A DNA stretch of 64,000 nucleotides from Nanobdellota archaeon (GTDB lineage: Archaea > Nanobdellota > Nanobdellia > Parvarchaeales > Parvarchaeaceae): assembly GCA_021802105.1 (NCBI GenBank), contig JAKAAW010000001.1:8150-72149 (forward strand). Reading direction: 5' to 3'. The first letter of the stretch is position 1, and each line of letters starts with the position of its first letter. A program made the position numbers and the translations under genes. Below are positions 19,258 to 43,084 of the stretch, piece after piece. A model generated the notes under the pieces. The model saw only the letters and a program-made list of their open reading frames with translations. It did no database searches and was not told the DNA's origin.

Positions 19258-19566
19258 TTACTTGTCTTTTTCTAACTCTTTCTGTGCCTCTTGTAGGTGT
19301 TTTGTCGTCTCCTCGACGGATTTGCTGACTTTCTTAAGCCTGAACTCTAAGATTTCAAGTTTTTCTTTCATAGCCGCTTCTATGTCCATCTTTCCCTTTT
19401 TGATTAAGACCTGCCCCACCATTTCGTATATTTGATCTGACTCAGACGATTTAGCCACTTCGTCGAGAGTTCTTTTTACCTCGTTGTATTGTAGCTGGAA
19501 AGTCTGTTTTTGGGTCATGTCAACCTGCAGCTGCTGTCTTAGATTCTCATATTCCGATTCATTCAT
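19258..19566 (-). CDS. pfdB: prefoldin beta subunit
   Basis: It is a 102-aa all-helical coiled-coil protein, and its position immediately downstream of pcc1/rpoP/L37Ae is the conserved archaeal arrangement. Confidence 0.7.
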   Translation of the reverse strand: MNESEYENLRQQLQVDMTQKQTFQLQYNEVKRTLDEVAKSSESDQIYEMVGQVLIKKGKMDIEAAMKEKLEILEFRLKKVSKSVEETTKHLQEAQKELEKDK

Positions 19567-19811
19567 AGTTCATCTATCTCCTCCATAGTCGATATGGCAT
19601 TAAGATATGTGCTTATTACCGACTGTAATAATTTAGTATTCTTAGTTTTTATGTCTATATACAGGTTGCCACCACTACTTTTTACATCAGCTGAAATCTT
19701 TTCCGTGCTTCTTACATTGTCTAATATGGCAGCACGCACGCTTTTTATAAAATCAGCCTTTCCTTTTAGGACTATTCTTGCACTGTTGTCCTTCTCATCT
19801 GGCTTTGACAT
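19563..19811 (-). CDS. pcc1: KEOPS complex subunit Pcc1-like
   Basis: It is an 82-aa protein in the conserved L37Ae-RpoP-Pcc1-prefoldin beta gene string. Identity is assigned mainly from synteny and size. Confidence 0.45.
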   Translation of the reverse strand: MSKPDEKDNSARIVLKGKADFIKSVRAAILDNVRSTEKISADVKSSGGNLYIDIKTKNTKLLQSVISTYLNAISTMEEIDEL

Positions 19812-19935
19812 GGTGTCCTGTCTCAGGCCGCTTTTTAACTAAGATTCTACCCCCACAGTATGGGCATCTTATTATGTCCTTTATCTCAGTGGAATCGACT
19901 GTTGCACCACACGAAAAACACGAATATCTTACCAT
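19795..19935 (-). CDS. rpoP: DNA-directed RNA polymerase subunit P (Rpb12/RpoP), missed by the ORF track
   Basis: It translates to MVRYSCFSCGATVDSTEIKDIIRCPYCGGRILVKKRPETGHHVKAR. The CxxC...CPYCG zinc ribbon and 46-aa size are typical of RpoP. It overlaps pcc1 by 17 nt and lies directly downstream of rpl37ae. Confidence 0.7.
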   Translation of the reverse strand: MVRYSCFSCGATVDSTEIKDIIRCPYCGGRILVKKRPETGHHVKAR

Positions 19936-19936
19936 A

Positions 19937-20134
19937 TCAGCTCAAAGATTTTACCGTCATTGTATATGCGCCGTCGGCTATCTCTAGTCCACAGCGTTTG
20001 CAGGTCCAGACACCGCTATACAGGCGTTTCATCGATAATTTCCTGCACTGAGGGCATTTGTATTTCTGTGAGCGCAACTGCTCTATCTTTTCAAGTCTCC
20101 TTCTCACACCCACACCGTATCTGGCGGTTCTCAT
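19937..20134 (-). CDS. rpl37ae: 50S ribosomal protein L37Ae
   Basis: It carries 'RTARYGVGVRRRL...KYKCPQCRK...WTCKRCG...AGGAYT', the C4 zinc ribbon of L37Ae. Confidence 0.85.
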   Translation of the reverse strand: MRTARYGVGVRRRLEKIEQLRSQKYKCPQCRKLSMKRLYSGVWTCKRCGLEIADGAYTMTVKSLS

Positions 20135-20230
20135 ATTCTTTTCTTTTGAAAGTTCAGCTATTTAAAGCTTAAAAAAGCGTAAATTTCACATTTTGAAACA
20201 GATTTATATTACGTAATTGGTTTAATAGCT

Positions 20231-21232
20231 ATGAAAAATTCAGCAGCTCTACCCCTATTGGTGATCGCATTGCTGGTTATAGGGGCGTCATACGGATTTT
20301 CACAGTCTTTGTCTGGGTTGCCGAGCGGAATAAGTGGCGCAGGCGTCGCCTACATAAATATAACCGATATGATAACACAGTCGTCTTCCACCTCTGCTTT
20401 GGTAGGCGTAACCTATACAGTAAGATACAACGGCTCAGGAAATCTTAATTTCACACTGATAAAGGCGAATGACATAAAGCTGCTGAAGAACGGCACGGCT
20501 TATAAATTTTCCAGGATTCTGTCCCCTACATGTACGGTATTTCTGCAGGAATCTGTAAACTGTACGACTATACTCATAAACAATGCAACTTACAACGACG
20601 TGTTTACGCTCTCCTATGATTATAGAATGGATTATCCCATAAACAACAAGGACATATTCAATTACACGTTTGTTTTCATACCGTCGACCCCGACGCAACT
20701 TAACATTAAAACTTTTCTTCCTCAAGGCGCATTCCTTCCTAATTCAACATACTATAGCCCATCCAACGCAGTCTTCACTTCAAATGGAAACACTATAGAA
20801 GTAGTATGGTCCCTTTTTCAGGTGACAGCGGCTCCTCTTCCTCTTCCATTCTCAGTTTCCTATGAGCTAAATTCTTTTAGTCCAAACGCCTCTGGCTTTC
20901 CAATAAACGCCGGTACTGTCATTATAATAATTATAGTAATAATCTTGGTACTAATGGGCATAGTTGTTTTAACCAAGAACAGGAAGGGAAAACCAGACAT
21001 CAAAGAAGCCAAACCAAAAAAGAGAACTAGCCCTCTCGTAAAGGTTCTAAACGACAATGAGAGAAGAATACTGGGAATGCTAAAGAGAGATGCATTTATA
21101 ACGCAGAAAGAACTTACATCAAAAACGGGTTTCTCCAAGGCCAAGATGAGTAAAATACTGTCAAAACTATCTAGGCTTAAATTGATAAAAGTAAAACCAG
21201 ATGGCAGACTTAACAAAATCAAGAGAGTCTAA
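20231..21232 (+). CDS. transmembrane one-component regulator: signal peptide, ~200-aa extracellular domain, one TM segment and a cytoplasmic winged-HTH
   Basis: Its N-terminus is signal-like (ALPLLVIALLVIGASYG), it has N-x-S/T sequons, and it has a TM segment 'VIIIIIVIILVLMGIVVL'. The C-terminus 'NERRILGMLKRDAFITQKELTSKTGFSKAKMSKILSKLSRLKLIKVKPDGR' has the pattern of a MarR/TrmB-like wHTH. Confidence 0.5.
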   Translation: MKNSAALPLLVIALLVIGASYGFSQSLSGLPSGISGAGVAYINITDMITQSSSTSALVGVTYTVRYNGSGNLNFTLIKANDIKLLKNGTAYKFSRILSPTCTVFLQESVNCTTILINNATYNDVFTLSYDYRMDYPINNKDIFNYTFVFIPSTPTQLNIKTFLPQGAFLPNSTYYSPSNAVFTSNGNTIEVVWSLFQVTAAPLPLPFSVSYELNSFSPNASGFPINAGTVIIIIIVIILVLMGIVVLTKNRKGKPDIKEAKPKKRTSPLVKVLNDNERRILGMLKRDAFITQKELTSKTGFSKAKMSKILSKLSRLKLIKVKPDGRLNKIKRV

Positions 21233-21234
21233 CC

Positions 21235-21564
21235 ATGCAAAACAAGGTCAAAGGTTACCGTGCCGAAAGAAAGATGAGATTAATCCTTGAGGGTTATGGC
21301 TGGAAAGTAGTCAGGGCTGGCGGTAGCTTGGGCGAATATGATATAATTGCCTTCAAAGAGGGAAAGTGCATCTTTTTTCAGGTAAAATCGACGGGGAGGG
21401 AAGTATTTTATTACTATGGTTATCCTGAAGACACATATGAGGGTTTTCCATTTAGATTGATAGTTGACTTTGGCAGAGGGTGCGTCAGGGTTTTAAAGCC
21501 GAAAAAGACAGTACGAAAGGACGATGGGGAAGATTTCAGCGAGTTTGTCCGTTCACAGTCATAA
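21235..21564 (+). CDS. hjc: Holliday-junction-resolvase-like (Hjc family, PD-(D/E)xK fold) nuclease with Q in place of the usual catalytic E
   Basis: 'YRAERKMRLILEGYGWKVVRAGGSLGEYDIIAFKEGKCIFFQVKST' parallels the Hjc 'RAxGS..DxxA...xxxIEVKS' core. However, the E-x-K position reads Q-V-K. Confidence 0.55.
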   Translation: MQNKVKGYRAERKMRLILEGYGWKVVRAGGSLGEYDIIAFKEGKCIFFQVKSTGREVFYYYGYPEDTYEGFPFRLIVDFGRGCVRVLKPKKTVRKDDGEDFSEFVRSQS

Positions 21565-21709
21565 ACTCGCAGTGAAACAGTTTCCAACAGTTTCATAGGA
21601 GTCTTTTAATAATAACATTTTGTAATGGAATTTATTAAAAGATGGTTTTTGTGTTTACTCGGGCACAAAAGCCGTCTTTTTTATTTTTCTTTGCGTTAAG
21701 TTTAAATTT

Positions 21710-21874
21710 TTACCCAAACACTGTAGACGCTACCAATACAACTGTTATAAGTGCTACACCCAGAACTATAACAACATACGGTTTAATGGTTATCTTACTT
21801 TTGTACTCTGAGTAATACTGTACCAGTCCTCCAAACGATGATGGCATCCTCGCTTGTCCTTTCTTCCCTAACAT
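21710..21874 (-). CDS. secG: preprotein translocase Sec61 beta / SecG (archaeal), missed by the ORF track
   Basis: It translates to MLGKKGQARMPSSFGGLVQYYSEYKSKITIKPYVVIVLGVALITVVLVASTVFG. The 'SSxGLxxY..E....I.I.P..V' pattern plus a C-terminal TM helix is the Sec61-beta signature. The internal Met (MPSS...) is an alternative start. Confidence 0.6.
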   Translation of the reverse strand: MLGKKGQARMPSSFGGLVQYYSEYKSKITIKPYVVIVLGVALITVVLVASTVFG

Positions 21875-21884
21875 AACTTATACT

Positions 21885-22427
21885 CTAAACAGCTTTGTTA
21901 TTAAAGCTTTCCACGTGCGTCATTTCTTTCAGAGCAGGGATAGATGTCTGCGCAGCACCCGTATGGACATCAAGTGGATAACCTATAGGTATAATCCCTC
22001 TAATAACGTACTTGTTAGGGATATTTAATAGCTTTTTAACAAGATCCTGCTGCACAGTCGCTATCCATGCGCTACCAAGCCCCTGTTCAGCAGCGTAAAG
22101 TAATATGTTCTCAATTGCCAGAGATGCGTTTTCTATGCAGAAAGTTCTTGTATCTTCCGCATCGAACGCAGCATTAAGTTTTGACGGGTCGCACATAACT
22201 ATTATTATGAATGGGGCGGAGTTTATATTAGGAGTCAGGCACAATTTGCTTATTTCATCCTTTTTCGGCTGTTCTGAAACAACAACAAATTCGTATTCAT
22301 GTATTCCACCTGCAGCAGGAGCCAAGCGTGCCGCATCTAATGCCTTTATTATGGTTTCCTCCTTAACGAGCTTTGATGAGAAAGAGTATACGGTGTTTCT
22401 GTTCTTTATTATATCATACAGGTCCAT
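21885..22427 (-). CDS. nitroreductase-family (FMN-dependent) protein
   Basis: It is 180 aa, with 'RNTVYSFSSKLV..E.I.KALDAARLAPAAGGIHEYEFVVV' and 'NASLAIENILLYAAEQGLGSAWI' typical of the nitroreductase fold. Confidence 0.7.
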   Translation of the reverse strand: MDLYDIIKNRNTVYSFSSKLVKEETIIKALDAARLAPAAGGIHEYEFVVVSEQPKKDEISKLCLTPNINSAPFIIIVMCDPSKLNAAFDAEDTRTFCIENASLAIENILLYAAEQGLGSAWIATVQQDLVKKLLNIPNKYVIRGIIPIGYPLDVHTGAAQTSIPALKEMTHVESFNNKAV

Positions 22428-22476
22428 ATACTATAGAATATGAAAATACATTAATTTATAGATGTTTAGGCTTGCC

Positions 22477-22668
22477 TTAAGAATAATTCTCGATAAGTTC
22501 TGCTAGGATGTTCGATTTGCCGCCGGTCGACTTGGCTAGCATTTCATCACATACCAGGCACTTCACATCTGAAGCTGCTTTTGTAAATATTATCTGCTCA
22601 TTCTTGCACTTAGGGCATCTCACTTTTGCAAAATGACTCTCCGTCGGTTTAAAAACTATCTCTTCCAT
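22477..22668 (-). CDS. rps27e: 30S ribosomal protein S27e
   Basis: 'VRCPKCKNEQIIFTKAASDVKCLVCDEMLAKSTGGK' is the C4 zinc finger of S27e. Confidence 0.85.
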   Translation of the reverse strand: MEEIVFKPTESHFAKVRCPKCKNEQIIFTKAASDVKCLVCDEMLAKSTGGKSNILAELIENYS

Positions 22669-22669
22669 A

Positions 22670-22963
22670 TCATTTGATTTCTATCTTCTTGGCTTTGTTG
22701 CCACGAGATTGTGTCGTCATTTTACCGCATTTCGTGCATTTATATCTTATATCATATCTTTTCGTCTGCTTTACACCCATTCGTTTGGCGTGCTCGAACA
22801 TCGGGTAAGGCGTTGATCCATATCCGTGCTCTATGTTGTAGAGCTTCCTACGACTGCCAGCAGTCATAGTACCTCTCTTTCCACCCTTTACCTGGACGAC
22901 CTTCTGCAGAGTGTGTTCTTTGCAGTGCGGGCAATATCTCTTTACTTGACTTGGGAACTTCAT
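22670..22963 (-). CDS. rpl44e: 50S ribosomal protein L44e
   Basis: 'MKFPSQVKRYCPHCKEHT...KGGKRG...YKCTKCGK' matches L44e. It forms the conserved L44e-S27e operon. Confidence 0.85.
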   Translation of the reverse strand: MKFPSQVKRYCPHCKEHTLQKVVQVKGGKRGTMTAGSRRKLYNIEHGYGSTPYPMFEHAKRMGVKQTKRYDIRYKCTKCGKMTTQSRGNKAKKIEIK

Positions 22964-23054
22964 TTCCTTTTATAAGAAACCACCTATTTAAATGTTTTCC
23001 TTTCTTGGAAAGCGCTAAAATTAGCGGTTATGTCATAAACGATATAAATGTGCG

Positions 23055-25493
23055 GTGCGTTCTACCTCTATGAGATTTTATGCAGCACCCTTGCTCATAA
23101 TTATATTAGTACTGTCTGTAGGCGCATCCCACGGCGCGCAGATATCACTAAACATTCATGAGATACCCTTTTCCGGTGTTTCGTGCACTGACCTTTCACC
23201 GTCACAGATCCAAAATGCGTACGGTTTTAACTCTCTATACAATATGGGCATCAATGGAAATGGCCAAAACGTAGCAATAGTTGTTGCTCAGGGCGATCCA
23301 ACTTTGTCCAGCGACTTGGCGGCTTTTGACTCACAATATGGTCTACCATCCCTCGTGAACGGGTCTAATCTTATACTATCTTACCCTTTCGGAGATCCAT
23401 CTTTTAATTCAAAGAACTGGACTGTCGAGACAGCCTTAGACGTTGAAGTTGTTCATTCTCTTGCGCCGCGTGCAAATATATATTTGGTAATAGCGCCAAA
23501 CGACAGCTGGCTGTTCAATGCGGTTAACTATACTATACAAAATTTGCCAGTACAAGTTATCTCACTTAGCTGGGGTGCCTCTGAGCAGTATTATTCCGCT
23601 TCTCAGGTAAACCAGATTAATAATATACTCTCTGCTGCACAAGAGAGGCACATAAGCATATTTGCGGCAAGTGGAGACAGTGGCGCGTACAATGGGTTAT
23701 CTACTTTAAATGTGAATTTCCCAGCATCCAGTCAGTATGTCATTGGGGTTGGAGGAACATCTCTATCTGCTACCTCTTCAGGCTCTTACCTAAGCGAAAC
23801 CGCTTGGAGTGGAAGCGGTGGTGGCTACAGTGCGTTCTTTCCAAAACCAGCACCTCAGCCGAATATAAGTTCTTACAGAATGGTACCTGATGTGTCTTTT
23901 AACGCAGGTACTCCCATATGTGCTTATATAAGTTCTGCTTGGGGAGGGTATTATGGTACTAGCGTAGCCGCCCCATCATGGGCAGCCATCAGTGCTCTTG
24001 TAGATCAGAGAGGAGGCGGCAGCGGAGTGGTGTCACTGAAAAGTCTTTATAGCGCGTTCTATTCCGAAGGAGGCATTGCGTATAATCTGATAAGCAGCGG
24101 CAACAACGGCTATTACTCTGCGAACGGCGGATACAGTCTGGTAACCGGGATAGGTAGTCCTAAAGTATATGCTCTAGCGCAGATACTAACAAAGGCATCA
24201 TACAAAATATCCTTTTCTGCGCTGGGTGCTGGCGCAGTTTTCGATATAAACGGAATAAACTACTCTGCACCATTTTCTCTAAATTTCAGTTACGGCCAGA
24301 AGGTATCCATGGGTGTATATGCACCATCCCATAATATGAGTAAGCGCTACGCTTTCGTTTCATACAGAGGTTTTTACAACTCAACGAATAGGACCGCAGA
24401 GTTTTATGTTGATAGCTCTGGAAACGTGACAGCTAATTTCAAAACACAGTTCGCAATAAATGAGGTTAATATAGGTGGTAACGTTAACACCACTGTATAT
24501 GCAGATAATGGAACATACTTTACCGCTTCCAGCCAGCTAAACTACATCCTATCAGGGAAAAGCTTTTCCCTTGTCGGGATAAAAATAGGTGAAAATAGCT
24601 TGGTGTACAATTCGTCTCTCCGCTTCTTTGTCAGCTCGCCTACAAGGGTCAATTTTTTGTGGAGAATAGGCAGCGTGTCAAAATTCATAATATCTGGTGT
24701 ACCACAGGGTGCCAGAGCCACCGTAAACTATACTAATTACGTTCCGCTCTCCAACAGAACAAGTACATACACAGCACTGGTCGGAAACGGAGAATCTATA
24801 CCCGTTATAGTAGGATCGAAACTGAATTACAGTGGACAGATATACCTCTCTGGATATAGATATTTTCTCCAGCCATCCAGTATCTTATCTGCGCCGGGCA
24901 TACAACTGAGTTTTGTAAAAGAATTCAGATATGTACTAACTTTCGTGTCAGCGGATAATTCAACGCTTTCTCCCACGGAAATATCCGTACTAAGTGCGTC
25001 TGCAAATAGTACCTTTTCCAACGATACAATATGGGTCCCTATCAGTGAGAATTTTAAGGTAAGTTCCGTGGAGCTTAACAATAACGGCTTCAACGCTTTA
25101 AACCACAACATAACCCTGTCTCAATACAACTATAGCTCTCCGATAAAACTACCGGTGTCCGATGTTAGCGTTCTAGTCAAGTTATATTTAGGTATACCAG
25201 TTATAGGCGCAGCCGTAAAGTTCAGTTATGACAACCTGTCGATAGAGAACTCTACAAGCAATCTTGGATCGGCACAGTTCAGCGATGTACCGAATTCTGG
25301 GTACAGTATAACAATAATGGCGTATGGGAGCAACTATACATTCTCAAATGTTTATGGTAAGAACCCGTCGTTCCAGATAAATCCTTTTATGTACCAATTA
25401 TATGTCGCGATAGCAGCGATAAGTCTTGTAATACTAATCTTTTCCGTGTGGGAAGAGCTTATGCACAGGAAAAAGAAGAGAAGCGCACAATAG
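23055..25493 (+). CDS. sedolisin-type (S53 family) serine-carboxyl peptidase, secreted, with a long C-terminal extension and a C-terminal membrane anchor
   Basis: It has a signal peptide (LLIIILVLSVGASHG) and a pro-region. Catalytic-domain motifs are 'SLSWGASE', 'FAASGDSGAY', 'GGTSLSAT' and 'YGTSVAAPSWAAISALV' (the S53 catalytic Ser in GTSxAAP). A ~450-aa S/N-rich extension follows, ending in a TM helix (LYVAIAAISLVILIFSVW) and a KKKR tail. Confidence 0.75.
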   Translation: MRSTSMRFYAAPLLIIILVLSVGASHGAQISLNIHEIPFSGVSCTDLSPSQIQNAYGFNSLYNMGINGNGQNVAIVVAQGDPTLSSDLAAFDSQYGLPSLVNGSNLILSYPFGDPSFNSKNWTVETALDVEVVHSLAPRANIYLVIAPNDSWLFNAVNYTIQNLPVQVISLSWGASEQYYSASQVNQINNILSAAQERHISIFAASGDSGAYNGLSTLNVNFPASSQYVIGVGGTSLSATSSGSYLSETAWSGSGGGYSAFFPKPAPQPNISSYRMVPDVSFNAGTPICAYISSAWGGYYGTSVAAPSWAAISALVDQRGGGSGVVSLKSLYSAFYSEGGIAYNLISSGNNGYYSANGGYSLVTGIGSPKVYALAQILTKASYKISFSALGAGAVFDINGINYSAPFSLNFSYGQKVSMGVYAPSHNMSKRYAFVSYRGFYNSTNRTAEFYVDSSGNVTANFKTQFAINEVNIGGNVNTTVYADNGTYFTASSQLNYILSGKSFSLVGIKIGENSLVYNSSLRFFVSSPTRVNFLWRIGSVSKFIISGVPQGARATVNYTNYVPLSNRTSTYTALVGNGESIPVIVGSKLNYSGQIYLSGYRYFLQPSSILSAPGIQLSFVKEFRYVLTFVSADNSTLSPTEISVLSASANSTFSNDTIWVPISENFKVSSVELNNNGFNALNHNITLSQYNYSSPIKLPVSDVSVLVKLYLGIPVIGAAVKFSYDNLSIENSTSNLGSAQFSDVPNSGYSITIMAYGSNYTFSNVYGKNPSFQINPFMYQLYVAIAAISLVILIFSVWEELMHRKKKRSAQ

Positions 25494-35456: not shown

Positions 35457-37205
35457 ATGAAAACAGAAAACAGCAAGGTGAACGGCATTCAAAAGAAATA
35501 TGAAACCGTTTCTTCCGACGTATTGATAATAGGCGCAGGTGGTGCTGGTCTTAGGGCCGCTATAGAAGCCTTTGATAATGAGGCTAGCGTCGTAGTTGTG
35601 TCAAAGTCGCTTCTCGGTAAAGCACACACCGTCATGGCAGAAGGAGGAATAGCTGCGTCCGTTGCGAATGTTGACTCAAAAGACAACTGGAAAGTCCACT
35701 TCTCGGATACGATAGTAGAAGGAGTCTACATCGGCAACTGGAGAATGGCAGAGATAATGACAAAAGAAGCCCCTGATAGGGTGTATGAGCTAGAGAGATA
35801 CGGCGCACTGTTTGACCGCACACCTGATGGAAAGATAATGCAGAGAGCCTTTGGAGCGCACACCTACAGAAGACTGTGTCATGTCGGAGATAAGACAGGA
35901 CTGGAACTTATAAGGACTCTGGAAGATCAGATCTTGCACAGGGACGTAAATGTTATGGATGAGGTGTTCATAACAAAGCTGTTCATAAAAAACAATTCCG
36001 TAAGCGGTGCCCTAGGGATACGATTGAGAACAGGCGAGATAATACTGTTTAGGACCAAGACCGTGATACTATGTACCGGCGGCGCAGGCAGATTATACAA
36101 AGTGACGTCCAACTCATGGGAATCAACGGGGGATGGTATAGCACTAGCCTACAATGCAGGTGCCGAGCTGATGGATATGGAGATGATACAGTTCCATCCA
36201 ACTGGGATGGTTTATCCGCCTGGTGTCAAGGGGTTACTTGTTACAGAGGGAATTAGGGGGGAAGGAGGCATCCTTCTAAATGCAAAAGGAGAACGATTCA
36301 TGCTGAGGTATTCTCCTGAGAAAAAAGAGCTTGACGCAAGAGACGTTGTCGCAAGAGCCATACACTCTGAGATAGAAGCAGGCAGAGGCACAGAACATAA
36401 TGCAGTGTACCTAGATATCTCCCAGAAAGGAGCTAAGTTCATACACCAAAAATTACCAGGTATGTATTCTCAATTTATGGATTTTGCAGGAGTTGATATT
36501 ACTAAACAACCTATGGAAGTAGCCCCCACCGTCCATTACCAGATGGGTGGCATAAGAGTTGATCCCGAGACATGTAGGACTAATATTAAGGGTCTTTTTG
36601 CGGCAGGCGAAGTCGCTAGCGGTCTGCATGGTGCAAATAGGTTGGGTGGTAACTCCCTTGCAGATATTCTTGTATTCGGTAAGAGGGCGGGTCTGGCAGC
36701 AGCAATTTACTCCAGCAAAACAGCATTGTCGTCTATAAGCACAGAGGAAATATCAAAGGAAATCGCACGTATAAACTCTTTTGCAAACAAAAAGAAAGGG
36801 CTCAACCCTCAAACTATAATTAAAGTAATCGGAGAAACTATGTCAGAAAAAGTTGGCATAGTTAGGGATGGCAAGGATCTTGGACTTGCTTTAACGAAGA
36901 TACAGGCGCTTAGGAAGAAAGCCAAAAACGTAGGTGTTTCAGGTTCTTTGAAATTTAACCCAGGTCTTCTTTCATGTCTTGAGGTAGAAGGTATGTTAAC
37001 CACGGCAGAGGCTATAATTAGAAGCGCGATAGCAAGAAAAGAAAGCCGTGGCGCGCACACTAGAAAAGATTTTCCAAAGAAAGACCCTAAGTTTAAGAAA
37101 AATATATTATCCTACAAAAATGGAAACAGCATGAAACTAAAGATGGTCAGTGTTCCCAGCATGCCAGACCGTCTAAAACAATTAGTAAAATTAGAGGTTT
37201 ACTGA
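35457..37205 (+). CDS. sdhA: succinate dehydrogenase / fumarate reductase flavoprotein subunit
   Basis: It has the FAD-binding 'DVLIIGAGGAGLRAA', 'HTVMAEGG' (covalent FAD His) and 'RLGGNSLADILVFG', and is 582 aa. Confidence 0.9.
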   Translation: MKTENSKVNGIQKKYETVSSDVLIIGAGGAGLRAAIEAFDNEASVVVVSKSLLGKAHTVMAEGGIAASVANVDSKDNWKVHFSDTIVEGVYIGNWRMAEIMTKEAPDRVYELERYGALFDRTPDGKIMQRAFGAHTYRRLCHVGDKTGLELIRTLEDQILHRDVNVMDEVFITKLFIKNNSVSGALGIRLRTGEIILFRTKTVILCTGGAGRLYKVTSNSWESTGDGIALAYNAGAELMDMEMIQFHPTGMVYPPGVKGLLVTEGIRGEGGILLNAKGERFMLRYSPEKKELDARDVVARAIHSEIEAGRGTEHNAVYLDISQKGAKFIHQKLPGMYSQFMDFAGVDITKQPMEVAPTVHYQMGGIRVDPETCRTNIKGLFAAGEVASGLHGANRLGGNSLADILVFGKRAGLAAAIYSSKTALSSISTEEISKEIARINSFANKKKGLNPQTIIKVIGETMSEKVGIVRDGKDLGLALTKIQALRKKAKNVGVSGSLKFNPGLLSCLEVEGMLTTAEAIIRSAIARKESRGAHTRKDFPKKDPKFKKNILSYKNGNSMKLKMVSVPSMPDRLKQLVKLEVY

Positions 37206-38829: not shown

Positions 38830-38923
38830 CATATAAGATGCAACCCTTAGTCTTCTTAAAGTCCTTTATCATGCTTTTTTCTTATGTTTCTAAAAATAAA
38901 TAAGGATAAAAACATATTATGTT

Positions 38924-41900
38924 ATGCCAAAGTACAGCTTGACCATAAATAAAAAATCGCAATCAGCCCTAGAATACCTTTTGACATACGGTTGGGCCAT
39001 AACGATAATCGTGCTAGTTATGGCCGCCATATATTATATGGGAATACTTAACATACCTCCTTCAGGTCCTGCAATAAGCGGTTTTTCAGGTATAGAAGTC
39101 ACCGCAGTTCAGGCAAACACATCCGTTTTTGAGTTTAGCATAAAGAACAACTTGGGTATAACCGCAAATCTGTCCACATTATCGGTTTCTTTCGATGGAA
39201 ATATGTACAAATTATGGCAATGCACGGCTACAATCCTCGACCCCGGTGAAAGTGCGATATGTGCGATATTAGGAAACTTTTCAGCATCACGGATATCCGC
39301 ACAGGTATCAATGGCGTATTCTGTGTCTAATATTTTAGGAGGGGTCTCCAATGGAACCATCTCAATAACACCGCAGGTACAGTTTATCTCCAGCCCATTC
39401 TCCCCATATTCTGTAAGGATAGCGGTATACAATAATCAGTCATCAGCTACCCCAACTCCGTTTCAGCAGGCGATAAAGTTTAATCCCACTCTTTTTTCCG
39501 GTTATGAACTATCTAATCTAGGAAACATAAGGCTCTATTACAACGGGCAGGAGCTATACAGCTGGTGCGAATATGGCTGTTCAAACAACGCGAACAGTTC
39601 GCTTATATGGGTAAAACTTACGAACTCCATCGCCGCAAATTCGACTATTAATCTTACGATGACATTCGAGCCACTAACCAACTATAATTCTGTGTATTCT
39701 GGTGAAGCCCCGCAGCTCTCTCCCGTGTACGGAGAATATGACAATGGAGCTAATGTATTCAATTTTTATGATAATTTTAAAGGGACTACTCTTGATACAA
39801 GCAAATGGTCCGGAGGTTCATGCCAGGTAATTTCAAATGGGTTATTAATCCCATCAAGTTGTAGTACACAACTAAATTCAAATACTGAATTTTCTAATCC
39901 TCTAATTTTAGAGGCAGACATGAATTTCGTAGATGTGTTTAATAATGTAGGTGGGATAGACGGAATTGGGATTTTTAATGCATCAAACGGTGCAGGTACT
40001 TATTATATTGGATGGTATAGGTACTCCGGAGGATTTTTCAGCGGTGGTGAATGGAACCCATCACAAAGCTGGCCGCAGTTCCCAGTCTCTCCTTTAACTA
40101 ATCATTTTTACGTTTGGAGTATATATTGGCAACCGTCATATTCATCCGTAATGTATTTAAACTATACAGATAGCGTTTCTCCCACAACTTACCCAGGCGA
40201 TTATCCTATAAAAATTGGAATTAACGCTCAAGGGGCGGCCGAATATCTAATGAATTGGATTCGTGTGCGTTCCTATCCCCCAAATGGAAAAATGCCTTCC
40301 ACATCAATAAGCTCTATAGGAAACCAGCCAATATATACGAGAGCCATAACGTTCTACAACGGACAGAATATAGCTACTTCAAATCCCTTCCAGCAGATGT
40401 TTACAACGGATTCCGCAGTCTATTCTGCTTATGAAGCGCCAAACCTTGATAACATACAGTTCGTTTATCAGAATGGATCAATAATACCATCATGGTTGGA
40501 GTCAGGAAACAGCAGTAAATCAACAGAGACAACATACTGGCTGAAAATAGGGAGCATTCCTGCTGACGCCGGAGTGACCATCTATGAAGTGTTCTACTCT
40601 ATAGCGGATAACGTTTTCAACAACATCAACACTGGGGAGGCTCCTCAATTTTCTCCGGTGTTTGGGGAATACAATAATATAGCAAATGTCATGGATCAAG
40701 GTTTGGCATATCAGGTGTATTACGACAGTGGTGGAACATGCGACTCGACGAATTACCAGACACAGCTTTACAATTCTTCTTTGGGCAACGGCACAACAGT
40801 ACTAGGATGCGCTTCGTTTGTCTCTAATACGGCACCATTTTCAGCAATCTCTCCCGGGACGTCTCAAAACGTCGATGGAACCACGGAACCGAACGTAGTT
40901 ATAAATTATCAATCTGGGTACAGTGGCGGTGCTCCTTATCCAAATCCACCCATTGCAAACACTGCGAACTCATGGTTGGTTAAGGCGATAGGGTGGGTGA
41001 ACATCGCTTCGTCCTCTACATCGACATTTAGTGAGATAGCAGATGACGGCATCACCCTAAGCTACTCTAAGAACGGTGGAAGTAGCAGCGGCATAAATTG
41101 GCTCGGTGGCTCATCGAGCCCCAATAATTTGATATCCCAATGGCATACGACCGGCGCGGCAGCATATACAAGTAGCAGCATTTCTGCGGGGACTTATAGG
41201 ATCGAATTGGATTATTTTGAAGATGGGGGAGGCTCGTATACTGGACTTTGGTCAAGCGCTTCAGTGGATTACTATCATGCCGCTTATCCTCCCGATGGAG
41301 TCATGCCTACTGTCATAGCAGGAACAAACATCCCTCTACATACGCAACCGATAACGTTCTACAACGGACAGAATATAGCTACTTCAAATCCCTTCCAGCA
41401 GATGTTTACAACGGATTCCGCAGTCTATTCTGCTTATGAAGCGCCAAACCTTGATAACATACAGTTCGTTTATCAGAATGGATCAATAATACCATCATGG
41501 TTGGAGTCCGGTGCAAGTAACGCCGCTACTTCAACGATATACTGGCTGAAGATTGGAAGCATTCCTGCGAACGGCAAACTAACGATATATGAGGTATTTT
41601 ATCCTACTTCTATAAACATGTTCAATACCATAAATACAGGTGAGGCCCCGCAATTATCTCCGATATATGCGGAATACGACGATGGAGCAAACGTATTCAA
41701 CAATTATTGGAATTTTGCAGGGACAACCTTACCAAACGGATGGACATCAAGTATAGGTTCAAGTAGTGGTTCAGTTACAGTAAATAACGGAGTAACACTT
41801 GCTTCTGGAACGGGAGGTAATAACGGTTGGGGAACAATTAATTACCCTTTTACAATGCCAGCATCAGATCAAACGATTGTAGAAGTATATGGTAAAACAG

Positions 41901-43084
41901 CAAGCACAGGCAGGCAGAGGATGTATCTGACAGATACAGCTACTTCTATTTTTGGAGGATATTATTCTGATTTAGGATTTGATTATGGTATTTATGGAAG
42001 TTCTGAAATAACTAGTGGAGACCTGCAGTATTATTGGAATGGATATAATTCTCCTTCTAATTCTGCTTTTGCAATAAATATCCCTTATATTATACAATAC
42101 ATTTTATCAGGTTCTACTTTTTATTGGAATATTTTAAATCAAACCGAATCAACAGTAGCATCACAATCTACAACGCAACCTTCTTCAACAACTGTCTTGT
42201 CCTTGATAGATGATGACGATAGTGGAGTAACTCAATCAACATACTATTGGATTCGTATGCGTGCCTATCCTCCAAATGGACTTATGCCAGGTACAACAAT
42301 AACAGTATTCACGGAATCCGGTCTTCCAAGCGGATACAAATGGAATGTCACATATAACAGCGTGCTGCAGAGCTCTACAACGTCATCGATTACATTCTTA
42401 AATACCCAAGGCACGTATTCTTACACCGTCCCCACGCTTTCCAACTCTAGTGCAGGTTGCACAACAACATACACTCCTTCATCTTCATCAGGAACATTGC
42501 TAGCAGGCTCAACACAGTCCATATCATTCAGCGGCTCCACCACATGTACTACAGTATTCACGGAATCCGGTCTTCCAAGCGGATACAAATGGAATGTCAC
42601 ATATAACAGCGTGCTGAAGAGCTCCACTTCCAGCACCATAACCTACTCTACTACATATACAGGAACGCAGCCGAGTTACTCTTACACCGTCCCCACGCTT
42701 TCCAACTCTAGTGCAGGTTGCACAACAACATACACTCCTTCGTCTTCACCTTCTAGCCCTGTTGCTGTTGGGTCTTTAGTATCTGTTACTTTTACCCCCC
42801 TGACAACGTGTACTACGACATTCACAGAATCTGGTTTACCAGGAGGGTACACCTGGTCAGTCGACTATGGCGGCACAACGTATTCCGCATCTAGTGGATC
42901 CCAAATACAATTCACGACGGCGCCTGGTACTTATTCATTTTCAGTAAGTCCAGTTGACGAGTCACCACTTACATCATGTGCAGCTACAATAGTAGAGTAT
43001 TATGTTTATTCTCCTTCCCCTTCTTCGGGGTCATTAGTAGCAGGTTCGCCGCAATCAATAACCTATTCATTGGTTTGTCCGTGA
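38924..43084 (+). CDS. giant (1386 aa) secreted protein with a class III (prepilin-like) signal peptide, three tandem ~330-aa modules and three C-terminal ~85-aa repeats; putative pilus-tip or adhesin-like surface protein
   Basis: The N-terminus 'MPKYSLTINKKSQSALEYLLTYGWAITIIVLVMAAIYYMG' resembles the archaeal class III signal motif (Q-S-x-x-E-Y-L-L). Modules repeat '...FYNGQNIATSNPFQQ...NL.NIQFVYQNG..IPSWLESG...YWLK.GSIPA...YEVFY...INTGEAPQ.SP.YGEYD.GANVFN'. The C-terminal repeats read 'TVFTESGLPSGYKWNVTYNSVL.SST'. It is heavily sequon-rich. Confidence 0.7.
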   Translation: MPKYSLTINKKSQSALEYLLTYGWAITIIVLVMAAIYYMGILNIPPSGPAISGFSGIEVTAVQANTSVFEFSIKNNLGITANLSTLSVSFDGNMYKLWQCTATILDPGESAICAILGNFSASRISAQVSMAYSVSNILGGVSNGTISITPQVQFISSPFSPYSVRIAVYNNQSSATPTPFQQAIKFNPTLFSGYELSNLGNIRLYYNGQELYSWCEYGCSNNANSSLIWVKLTNSIAANSTINLTMTFEPLTNYNSVYSGEAPQLSPVYGEYDNGANVFNFYDNFKGTTLDTSKWSGGSCQVISNGLLIPSSCSTQLNSNTEFSNPLILEADMNFVDVFNNVGGIDGIGIFNASNGAGTYYIGWYRYSGGFFSGGEWNPSQSWPQFPVSPLTNHFYVWSIYWQPSYSSVMYLNYTDSVSPTTYPGDYPIKIGINAQGAAEYLMNWIRVRSYPPNGKMPSTSISSIGNQPIYTRAITFYNGQNIATSNPFQQMFTTDSAVYSAYEAPNLDNIQFVYQNGSIIPSWLESGNSSKSTETTYWLKIGSIPADAGVTIYEVFYSIADNVFNNINTGEAPQFSPVFGEYNNIANVMDQGLAYQVYYDSGGTCDSTNYQTQLYNSSLGNGTTVLGCASFVSNTAPFSAISPGTSQNVDGTTEPNVVINYQSGYSGGAPYPNPPIANTANSWLVKAIGWVNIASSSTSTFSEIADDGITLSYSKNGGSSSGINWLGGSSSPNNLISQWHTTGAAAYTSSSISAGTYRIELDYFEDGGGSYTGLWSSASVDYYHAAYPPDGVMPTVIAGTNIPLHTQPITFYNGQNIATSNPFQQMFTTDSAVYSAYEAPNLDNIQFVYQNGSIIPSWLESGASNAATSTIYWLKIGSIPANGKLTIYEVFYPTSINMFNTINTGEAPQLSPIYAEYDDGANVFNNYWNFAGTTLPNGWTSSIGSSSGSVTVNNGVTLASGTGGNNGWGTINYPFTMPASDQTIVEVYGKTASTGRQRMYLTDTATSIFGGYYSDLGFDYGIYGSSEITSGDLQYYWNGYNSPSNSAFAINIPYIIQYILSGSTFYWNILNQTESTVASQSTTQPSSTTVLSLIDDDDSGVTQSTYYWIRMRAYPPNGLMPGTTITVFTESGLPSGYKWNVTYNSVLQSSTTSSITFLNTQGTYSYTVPTLSNSSAGCTTTYTPSSSSGTLLAGSTQSISFSGSTTCTTVFTESGLPSGYKWNVTYNSVLKSSTSSTITYSTTYTGTQPSYSYTVPTLSNSSAGCTTTYTPSSSPSSPVAVGSLVSVTFTPLTTCTTTFTESGLPGGYTWSVDYGGTTYSASSGSQIQFTTAPGTYSFSVSPVDESPLTSCAATIVEYYVYSPSPSSGSLVAGSPQSITYSLVCP

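Follow-up and report, generated by a model that had tools for sequence, protein, structure and literature searches.

The gene and its predicted protein

The DNA analysed here is a stretch of 64,000 nucleotides (the window) from contig JAKAAW010000001.1 of a Nanobdellota archaeon, and our subject is the single long open reading frame (ORF) that the ORF listing of the window places at 20231..21232 on the + strand. It begins with ATG and encodes a protein of 333 amino acids. An initial annotation, made from the letters of the window, described a membrane-tethered one-component regulator in which a signal segment, a sequon-rich ectodomain of ~200 amino acids, one transmembrane (TM) helix and a basic linker are followed by a C-terminal winged helix-turn-helix (wHTH). 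This layout is borne out by hydropathy, sequon counts, Pfam matches and AlphaFold2 models, and its parts are as follows.

20231..20305, + strand: signal peptide or N-terminal membrane anchor, amino acids 1-25 (MKNSAALPLLVIALLVIGASYGFSQ); Kyte-Doolittle (KD) hydropathy 1.7-2.2
20306..20914, + strand: extracellular all-beta ectodomain, amino acids 26-228, with 9 N-glycosylation sequons; from hydropathy, conservation and AlphaFold2
20915..20983, + strand: single TM helix, amino acids 229-251; KD hydropathy up to 3.64, modelled as a helix at 227-250
20984..21031, + strand: short basic cytoplasmic linker, amino acids 252-267; predicted local distance difference test (pLDDT) <50, mean conservation 0.12
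21032..21229, + strand: cytoplasmic wHTH (DUF7343/HTH_24), amino acids 268-333; from Pfam, model and conservation

The KD profile has two hydrophobic segments, amino acids 1-25 and 229-251, and the 9 N-x-S/T sequons that lie between them compare with 4.4 +/- 1.8 in shuffled sequences. No sequon is present in the C-terminal 82 amino acids. The tail beyond the TM segment carries 26 K or R residues versus 7 D or E residues, and 8 K/R fall within amino acids 252-275. A full-length AlphaFold2 model (pLDDT 76) places beta-strands at residues 39-213, a helix at 227-250, a disordered basic linker and then three helices and a wing at 268-332, and a model of the ectodomain on its own reaches pLDDT 80 with a predicted template-modelling score of 0.79.

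These asymmetries are shared by the family. Among 145 relatives, the 15 amino acids after the TM segment contain on average 4.4 K+R versus 1.1 before it, a bias seen in 97% of the proteins. Sequons are sixfold denser in the N-terminal part (1.7 per 100 amino acids outside versus 0.28 inside), and 79% of relatives have at least two cysteines outside and almost none in the tail. From these distributions of charge, sequons and cysteines, we conclude that the wHTH resides in the cytoplasm, and the pattern is that expected of an N-out/C-in protein with an extracellular disulfide. An HTH outside the cell, or a C-terminus that matches no HTH profile, had been named by the initial annotation as findings that would speak against its proposal; the family-wide asymmetries place the domain inside, and the C-terminus matches DUF7343 and HTH_24. 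The protein is a type-I, single-pass protein whose N-terminal signal or anchor sends a disulfide-bonded, N-glycosylated beta-sandwich outside, while one TM helix and a basic linker of ~16 amino acids keep a wHTH of minimal size close to the membrane on its inner side.

The winged helix and the family that carries it

The C-terminal domain (amino acids 273-331) matches Pfam DUF7343 (PF24034) with 35.0 bits at a cut-off of 27.6, and HTH_24 with 28.9 bits at a cut-off of 21.9. Matches to MarR_2 (26.4 bits, just under the cut-off of 27) and MarR (13.0 versus 24.6) fall short (PF01047 / PF12802), so the domain is not a member of these MarR families as Pfam defines them, and the ArsR, Lrs14 and MarR-type matches in NCBIfam are all below threshold. 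The description of a MarR/TrmB-like wHTH holds in the broader sense of a MarR/TrmB/ArsR type. A search of the PDB with the family profile recovers wHTH proteins only, the nearest being Lrs14-like, MarR and RPC34 wHTH domains. DUF7343 is matched by all 36 of 36 diverse relatives examined.

The wHTH is also the best-conserved part of the protein (0.52 versus 0.29 for the ectodomain). Its recognition helix opens with S302-K303-A304-K305-x-S307, and the wing retains G325 and N328; these seven residues are conserved at 84-99% over 146 relatives. The cytoplasmic part comprises residues 252-333 only, and in the model it has three helices and a wing without the N- and C-terminal dimerisation helices of MarR-type proteins. 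In the ectodomain, C101 and C111 are invariant among close relatives, and two cysteines recur in the consensus of distant relatives. P164, P177, G186 and W193 are kept across the wider family, and most relatives have the N-terminal hydrophobic segment.

A word-indexed search yields 11 close homologues, including one cluster named Candidatus Parvarchaeota in NCBI, and JGI annotates these homologues as 'uncharacterized membrane protein'. An exhaustive profile search enlarges the family to 1646 representative clusters when E<=1e-3 is accepted, and 313 of them reach E<=1e-10. The best 150 are almost all proteins of 280-340 amino acids with the same two hydrophobic segments, and DPANN archaea, Hydrothermarchaeota and Methanobacteriota account for most clusters with this layout. 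When each species was represented by a single genome, a scan confirmed 220 genome loci in several phyla. The best 80 of these 220 loci represent Parvarchaeota and other DPANN lineages (Aenigmatarchaeota foremost; Woesearchaeota, Micrarchaeota and Nanohalarchaeota), as well as Hydrothermarchaeota, Methanobacteriota, Methanosarcinales and Thermoplasmatales. Two Methanobacteriota metagenome-assembled genomes (L027 and L028) carry a tandem pair of family genes, which is a local duplication of the membrane wHTH gene.

The initial annotation regarded this architecture as uncommon in archaea, and here it erred. Beyond the 1646 clusters and 220 loci, transmembrane transcription regulators have been described in 367 of 404 archaeal species, at about 4 per genome and with 56% of them single-pass (Demey et al. 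2023, PMC10269533). The architecture is common in archaea, and the gene is an uncharacterised member of a known and common class; considered for the window alone, it is an ordinary member of its family. DUF7343 is mentioned in none of the papers found by our literature search, and a search on COG2512 returned irrelevant matches. The membrane-bound regulators that appear in papers on archaeal dark matter and type IV pili are arCOG00381/PF11748 proteins, which we set aside since they differ from the DUF7343-type family studied here.

A palindrome near family and S-layer promoters

Neighbouring genes were clustered in 88 loci, 21 of the Parvarchaeota type and 67 others. This survey of orthologue neighbourhoods, which the initial annotation had suggested, revealed pairing with a small Hjc-like gene in the Parvarchaeota-type loci and linkage to surface-layer (S-layer) genes elsewhere. 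Within the 67 non-Parvarchaeota loci, 28 have an S-layer gene (PF05124; S_layer_C 73.9 bits) no more than 5 kb from the family gene. The S-layer gene is the next one downstream on the same strand in 16-19 of these 28 loci, an alternative arrangement places it two genes upstream, and there are at least three arrangements in all. Because the family proteins in question are only ~30% identical, the linkage is old, though mostly within one phylum.

Upstream regions of the S-layer genes are enriched for AAACAGT-type k-mers (18 of 23, versus 12 of 335 other spacers), which resolve into the palindrome GAAAC-N-GTTTC. In S-layer promoters this palindrome lies 6-9 nucleotides upstream of the TATA box. 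The 769 kb of loci contain 36 exact palindromes where ~0.7 would be expected, and their density is ~17-fold higher in family-gene flanks than elsewhere in the loci (0.242 versus 0.014 per kb). Against a background of 14 among 322 other genes, at least two half-sites precede 9 of the 30 family genes (Fisher p = 2.5e-5) and 10 of the 23 S-layer genes (p = 2.3e-7), and most of the 14 background cases are the same spacers viewed from the divergent neighbour. Arms of 5 bp separated by a 1-nucleotide spacer are unable to form a hairpin, and hence the palindrome is predicted to be a protein-binding site for a dimer. The family protein is the single product that is consistently encoded next to it, and its best-conserved residues are those of the recognition helix and wing. 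The predicted operator pattern is GAAACNGTTTC, located 5-10 nucleotides before a TATA box.

The palindrome occurs in three configurations. In Aenigmatarchaeota it stands between the family gene and the S-layer gene, just upstream of the S-layer TATA box. In eight loci (L053, L056, L060, L066, L022, L026, L037 and L077) a palindrome or tandem TGTTTCA followed by a TATA box lies ahead of the family gene itself. In Parvarchaeota-type loci it comes directly after the Hjc-like gene. Family genes that lack an S-layer neighbour are also preceded by the palindrome.

An alternative explanation for the S-layer linkage is that the protein is structural, with an ectodomain that anchors or assembles the S-layer as SlaB does, a wHTH that serves as a protein-interaction module, and a palindrome that belongs to an unrelated S-layer regulator. 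Genes for S-layer proteins, secreted proteins, membrane proteins and GT2 glycosyltransferases do cluster around the family gene in 33 of the 67 non-Parvarchaeota loci, and the ectodomain is predicted to be a glycosylated beta-sandwich that adjoins the membrane. However, it is the wHTH that evolution has conserved best, and its basic recognition-helix and wing residues are typical of nucleic-acid binders. The presence of the palindrome at family genes without an S-layer neighbour and after the Parvarchaeota operon also disagrees with this explanation, as does the lack of any S_layer-type gene in the 64-kb window. We judge a structural role to be improbable.

Two further observations concern the non-Parvarchaeota loci. 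A cytoplasmic protein of 137-162 amino acids (for example 145 amino acids; 'c2') is encoded directly upstream of the family gene in loci among L029-L088 (L076 48-485; L048 4256-4696), and its stop codon abuts or overlaps the family-gene start in 22 Aenigmatarchaeota-type and other DPANN loci. Its consensus includes ...YGPSAIEILEP...HxFAxAGxGG; it has no Pfam match or credible PDB match, is absent from the window and is unrelated to the Hjc-like protein. The S-layer genes of L035, L048, L063, L068, L081 and L088 have long leaders, 75-240 nucleotides from the palindrome/TATA promoter to the start codon, that share the GC-rich blocks TTTTGGCGCG...TTTGGCGCCAAA...CACCGCGCA in an otherwise AT-rich spacer. 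This pattern suggests a conserved, structured 5′ untranslated region.

The family gene in the window has the following predicted promoter.

20194..20211, + strand: promoter of the family gene, with half-site TGAAACA at 20194-20200 abutting a TATA-like box (ATTTATATTA) at 20202-20211

A TATA-like ACATTTATA element is kept ahead of the family gene in other Parvarchaeota-type loci. With the TATA box only ~25 nucleotides before the ATG, the mRNA is expected to be leaderless or nearly so.

The Parvarchaeota operon and its hairpin module

The genes that flank the family gene in the window agree with the L37Ae/RpoP/Pcc1 block, Hjc-like gene and S53/FlaIJ locus listed by the initial annotation, as confirmed by ORF listing and Pfam.

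19563-19811, - strand: Pcc1-like
19795-19935, - strand: RpoP
19937-20134, - strand: L37ae
21235-21564, + strand: Hjc-like PD-(D/E)XK protein, 109 amino acids; starts 2 nucleotides after the family-gene stop; Pfam Hjc 33.4 bits
23055-25493, + strand: S8/S53-type secreted subtilase-like protein, 812 amino acids; Peptidase_S8 38.7 bits

A conserved block in Parvarchaeota-type loci comprises L37ae, RpoP, Pcc1, prefoldin-beta, the pair of family gene and Hjc-like gene, Sec61beta, nitroreductase, S27e, L44e, the S8-type surface protein and FlaI. The Hjc-like gene is the next called gene downstream in 21 of 21 such loci, with a gap of 1-6 nucleotides by called coordinates in 18; in the remaining 3, ORF calling has distorted the coordinates of the family gene. 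Family proteins that share this operon are 29-66% identical across the loci. The family gene and the small Hjc-like gene form a two-gene unit and are co-transcribed.

Alignment to Pyrococcus furiosus Hjc (1GEF) reveals that the catalytic signature of the Hjc-like protein is E-D-Q-K instead of E-D-E-K. The Q (Q49, in FQVK; E46 in 1GEF) is invariant across Parvarchaeota-type loci, and E, D and K are kept. The Pfam Hjc match covers the N-terminal half only, and the NCBIfam Hjc score of 17 bits against a cut-off of 70 places the protein outside canonical Hjc. From its residues, a resolvase fold with non-canonical activity or none may be expected.

Downstream of this operon is a compact module with the following features.

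21574..21594, no strand assigned: candidate operator, an exact palindrome (GAAACAGTTTC) at 21574-21584 and a third half-site GTTTC at 21590-21594, 11 nucleotides in register
21604..21611, + strand: TATA-like box (TTTTAATA), 9 nucleotides after the last half-site and ~26 nucleotides before the hairpin; nearly invariant alignment columns
21637..21690, + strand: hairpin whose stem has 17-20 bp, with CUCGG(A/G)C as its apical loop, and a U-run; minimum free energy -23.7 kcal/mol, z = -7.4

The sequence GAAACAGTTTC, which begins 10 nucleotides after the Hjc-like stop, is the one exact palindrome that the 64 kb contain between genes. A second exact copy (GAAACCGTTTC, 35502-35512) falls within an SdhA/FrdA-like flavoprotein gene (35457-37205), in the part that encodes the N-terminal region, and we take it as chance. 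A generic repeat scan of 19900-23100 found only chance-level short pairs and missed the palindrome, which was brought to light by the k-mer comparison across loci alone. Intergenic half-sites in the window, with three 6-mers in 3.4 kb, show no enrichment by themselves.

In an alignment of 15 Parvarchaeota-type loci the two GTTTC repeats are invariant, and the TATA box and hairpin loop are nearly so. Each of these loci folds a hairpin of 15-20 bp followed by a U-run, with z-scores down to -8.7. The stems vary and covary between lineages around a constant loop, and L005-L021 also carry the module, in which the GTTTC half-sites number two or three. The + strand can be assigned to the hairpin because a covariance model scores it at 70.8 bits versus 34.9 bits for the - strand, and because the variable pairs include G-U only on +. 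Rfam gave nothing near threshold on 21400-21900, no second copy of the hairpin is present in the window, and a sigma-70 promoter scan was uninformative for archaeal DNA. Judging from its conservation and folding, the hairpin may be an undescribed Parvarchaeota RNA of ~50 nucleotides driven by the GTTTC/TATA module, or it may be a terminator or a conserved element at the operon's 3′ end.

This arrangement invites a non-regulatory explanation, wherein the wHTH anchors GTTTC repeats to the membrane and, in Parvarchaeota, has the Hjc-like protein as its partner in positioning or segregating the chromosome or in processing DNA. A DNA tether of this kind would account for the strict retention of the Hjc-like operon in Parvarchaeota-type loci and for repeats that sit between convergent genes with no annotated gene behind them, and a very short linker would keep the bound DNA at the membrane. 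We nevertheless give it little credence. In other lineages the motif occurs at a fixed spacing from the TATA boxes of S-layer and family genes, as expected for promoter logic, and even in Parvarchaeota the repeats are followed by a conserved TATA box and a transcript-like hairpin. Moreover, the Hjc-like partner is lineage-specific by the clustering of the 88 loci, and it carries Q at a catalytic position.

Other surface-protein genes of the window were also noted. The 812-amino-acid S8/S53-type protein carries a great many sequons and is anchored by a C-terminal TM segment, and its gene is followed by that of a FlaI/T2SSE ATPase. This S8-type plus FlaI/T2SSE block is kept in Parvarchaeota-type contigs, and in some sister contigs (L001-L003) an IS605-type HTH ORF lies between the two genes. 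Closeness of the family gene to the S53/FlaI locus is kept only within the Parvarchaeota-type synteny block and is without demonstrated functional weight. A protein of 1386 amino acids (38924-43084, + strand) with a type IV pilin-like (class III) signal (KKSQSALEYLLTYGWAI) and DUF2341 domains is presumably a giant protein of the cell surface or an adhesin. A single TGTTTC adjoins the TATA-like box of its gene at 38885, which could be chance.

The ectodomain and ribophorin I

The ectodomain matches no Pfam family in any of the 36 members searched, even at lenient E-values. Foldseek searches with the ectodomain model recover beta-sandwiches at template-modelling scores of 0.4-0.54, among them Legionella lpg2210, the N-terminal region of ITIH1, BDI_1141, the N-domains of M1 aminopeptidases, and chain E of the human oligosaccharyltransferase (OST). 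Chain E, which we verified to be ribophorin I, is equal to the best match (score 0.50-0.54, E = 4e-5). When the full-length model is compared with ribophorin I, the alignment spans the TM helix and extends over 294 columns. A profile comparison with hhalign aligns amino acids 137-212 of the window protein to residues 344-429 of RPN1, which are the last strands before the TM helix in both. The score of 29.8 (P ~0.003, probability 11-13%) exceeds the maximum of 22.8 in 30 block shuffles and the 15.3 of the reversed control, and was obtained with a shallow RPN1/Ost1 profile containing vertebrate sequences only. A candidate kinship to the haloarchaeal DUF7345 ectodomain was rejected, as hhalign aligns the wHTH alone.

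Given these matches, the protein could be envisaged as an Ost1-like accessory of secretion or N-glycosylation, whose ectodomain handles nascent glycoproteins such as S-layer proteins at the translocon and whose wHTH binds rRNA or the ribosome. In addition to the Foldseek match, its continuation through the TM helix and a collinear hhalign alignment above the controls, neighbours of the family include S-layer, GT2, Sec61beta and ribosomal protein genes. In Ost1 itself, two luminal domains are combined with a cytosolic bundle of four helices that binds ribosomes, and reports of homologues are confined to eukaryotes and to Asgard and TACK archaea (PMC11417166).

This role seems doubtful to us on several grounds. 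The hhalign probability is low, Pfam Ribophorin_I (PF04597) gives no match at E<=5 in any of 36 members, and lpg2210, ITIH1 and M1 aminopeptidases, which are unrelated proteins with the same sandwich, match equally well. Two luminal domains and a 4-helix bundle without a wHTH set Ost1 apart, and the 64-kb window contains no STT3/AglB motif of the WWDYG type. DPANN genomes are dense in housekeeping genes, which makes the gene context weak, and the cis-linked palindrome is left unexplained.

The ectodomain model resembles ribophorin I and the N-domains of M1 aminopeptidases, and homology is a lead that is as yet unproven. A bolder proposal would be true homology between the ectodomain and the ribophorin I/Ost1 domain nearest the membrane. 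In that case the family would represent a DPANN/euryarchaeal counterpart whose glycoprotein-handling module is fused to a DNA-binding domain, serving as a membrane-tethered feedback sensor that couples S-layer export, glycosylation or assembly to transcription via GAAAC-N-GTTTC, and rewired to a small hairpin RNA in Parvarchaeota. We regard this as unlikely, and our literature search found no paper that joins ribophorin, archaea and the winged helix.

Relation to known regulators

As in the transmembrane transcription regulators of the archaeal census (PMC10269533), one polypeptide combines a DNA-binding domain of the HTH type with a single TM segment, and the sensor is outside. The protein has both of the features by which those regulators are defined, namely a predicted DNA-binding domain and at least one TM segment with the DNA-binding side in the cytoplasm. 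No member of the present family is characterised in that census, and here the DNA-binding domain is C-terminal, behind a signal segment and an ectodomain.

ToxR, CadC and TcpP are likewise single-pass proteins that sense outside and bind promoters while tethered; their targets are often beside the regulator gene, and dimerisation is driven from outside the cytoplasm. However, the wHTH of ToxR-like proteins is N-terminal and of the OmpR type (Trans_reg_C), their sensor is C-terminal and periplasmic, and they lack a signal peptide. The present protein reverses this order, carries a DUF7343/MarR-like wHTH and an unrelated ectodomain, has no Trans_reg_C match and thus lies outside the ToxR-like class. 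In Sulfolobus acidocaldarius, ArnR and ArnR1 are characterised membrane-bound one-component regulators of the archaellin promoter (PMC6396743), and in ArnR the cytoplasmic HTH is N-terminal and the TM segments are C-terminal (PMC13286277). These proteins lack a large glycosylated ectodomain, whereas the HTH studied here is C-terminal and no sequence kinship was detected, so they do not form one group with our family.

The closest parallel in order of parts is the haloarchaeal-type DUF7345-TM-DUF7343 protein (for example P0171), with a C-terminal DUF7343 wHTH that bears a GFSKAK motif. Its ectodomain is not detectably related, and these proteins are also uncharacterised. Ribophorin I/Ost1 likewise has a signal peptide, a beta-sandwich right before a single TM helix, and a basic cytosolic domain that binds nucleic acid. 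It has two luminal domains versus one of ~175 structured residues in our protein, and its 4-helix bundle stands in place of the wHTH, which sets the two architectures apart. MarR, TrmB and Lrs14 regulators, the nearest profile and PDB matches, have the same kind of wHTH but are soluble dimers with extra dimerisation helices, whereas the present protein has only the core wHTH of ~65 amino acids and is membrane-tethered.

Proposed mechanism

Considering these data, we estimate a probability of about 0.6 that the ORF encodes a type-I, single-pass transmembrane transcription regulator from a large, uncharacterised archaeal family with a C-terminal DUF7343 wHTH, and that this protein recognises GTTTC half-sites beside its own gene. 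The earlier proposal of a membrane-tethered one-component regulator thus stands in its anatomy and topology, to which a cis-linked palindrome at a set distance from TATA boxes is now added, and falls only in the rarity ascribed to it. The structural, Ost1-like and DNA-tether explanations all leave the promoter-like geometry of the motif unexplained.

In the mechanism that we favour, the wHTH would bind GTTTC half-sites that either form the palindrome GAAAC-N-GTTTC or recur in tandem at intervals of one helical turn. Since the cytoplasmic part has no dimerisation helices, pairing of the subunits is probably brought about by the ectodomain and the TM helix. The sites always adjoin the regulator's own gene, which would suit a factor that cannot leave the membrane and is presumably inserted co-translationally. 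Activation is the expected outcome, because sites 5-9 nucleotides upstream of the TATA box occupy the position of archaeal activators that recruit TBP and TFB. The controlled promoter would be that of the adjacent S-layer gene in Aenigmatarchaeota-type loci and that of the family gene itself in some lineages. In Parvarchaeota, including the window, the target is probably the promoter-like module at 21574-21611 together with the hairpin RNA at 21637-21690. The most likely input to the ectodomain is either the condition of the cell envelope or an extracellular ligand, and an envelope or S-layer cue is a reasonable guess from the gene context in other phyla.

Several points weigh against this interpretation. 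The link between protein and palindrome is purely correlative, and another factor could bind the palindrome; wHTH domains are also known to bind RNA or proteins. Most S-layer-linked loci belong to Aenigmatarchaeota, such that part of the signal could be inherited synteny, and Hydrothermarchaeota, Methanobacteriota and many other loci have no palindrome near the family gene. The 80 genome loci were fetched via a peptide pattern taken from the recognition helix, and hence the identity of this helix among them is by construction. In the window itself, the TGAAACA half-site of the family gene's own promoter (20194-20200) is not kept in sister Parvarchaeota-type loci and may be there by chance beside the TATA box. 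The window motif is placed where convergent genes meet, at the operon's 3′ end, so that its control target is uncertain and the hairpin could be a terminator.

Significance

To our knowledge, the regulators of archaeal S-layer genes are largely unknown, and the same holds for envelope sensing in cells with tiny genomes. Gene-poor DPANN archaea keep few transcription factors, and this family is among the genes they have kept. The prediction is compact: one protein, an 11-bp operator and defined promoters, namely those of the S-layer gene, the family gene itself and the hairpin RNA. The value of the analysis lies in this family-wide operator prediction and in the S-layer link. If it is true, the family would provide a tractable archaeal model of a type-I membrane-tethered transcription factor and a handle on S-layer control, and it might also bear on how the ribophorin-type sandwich evolved.

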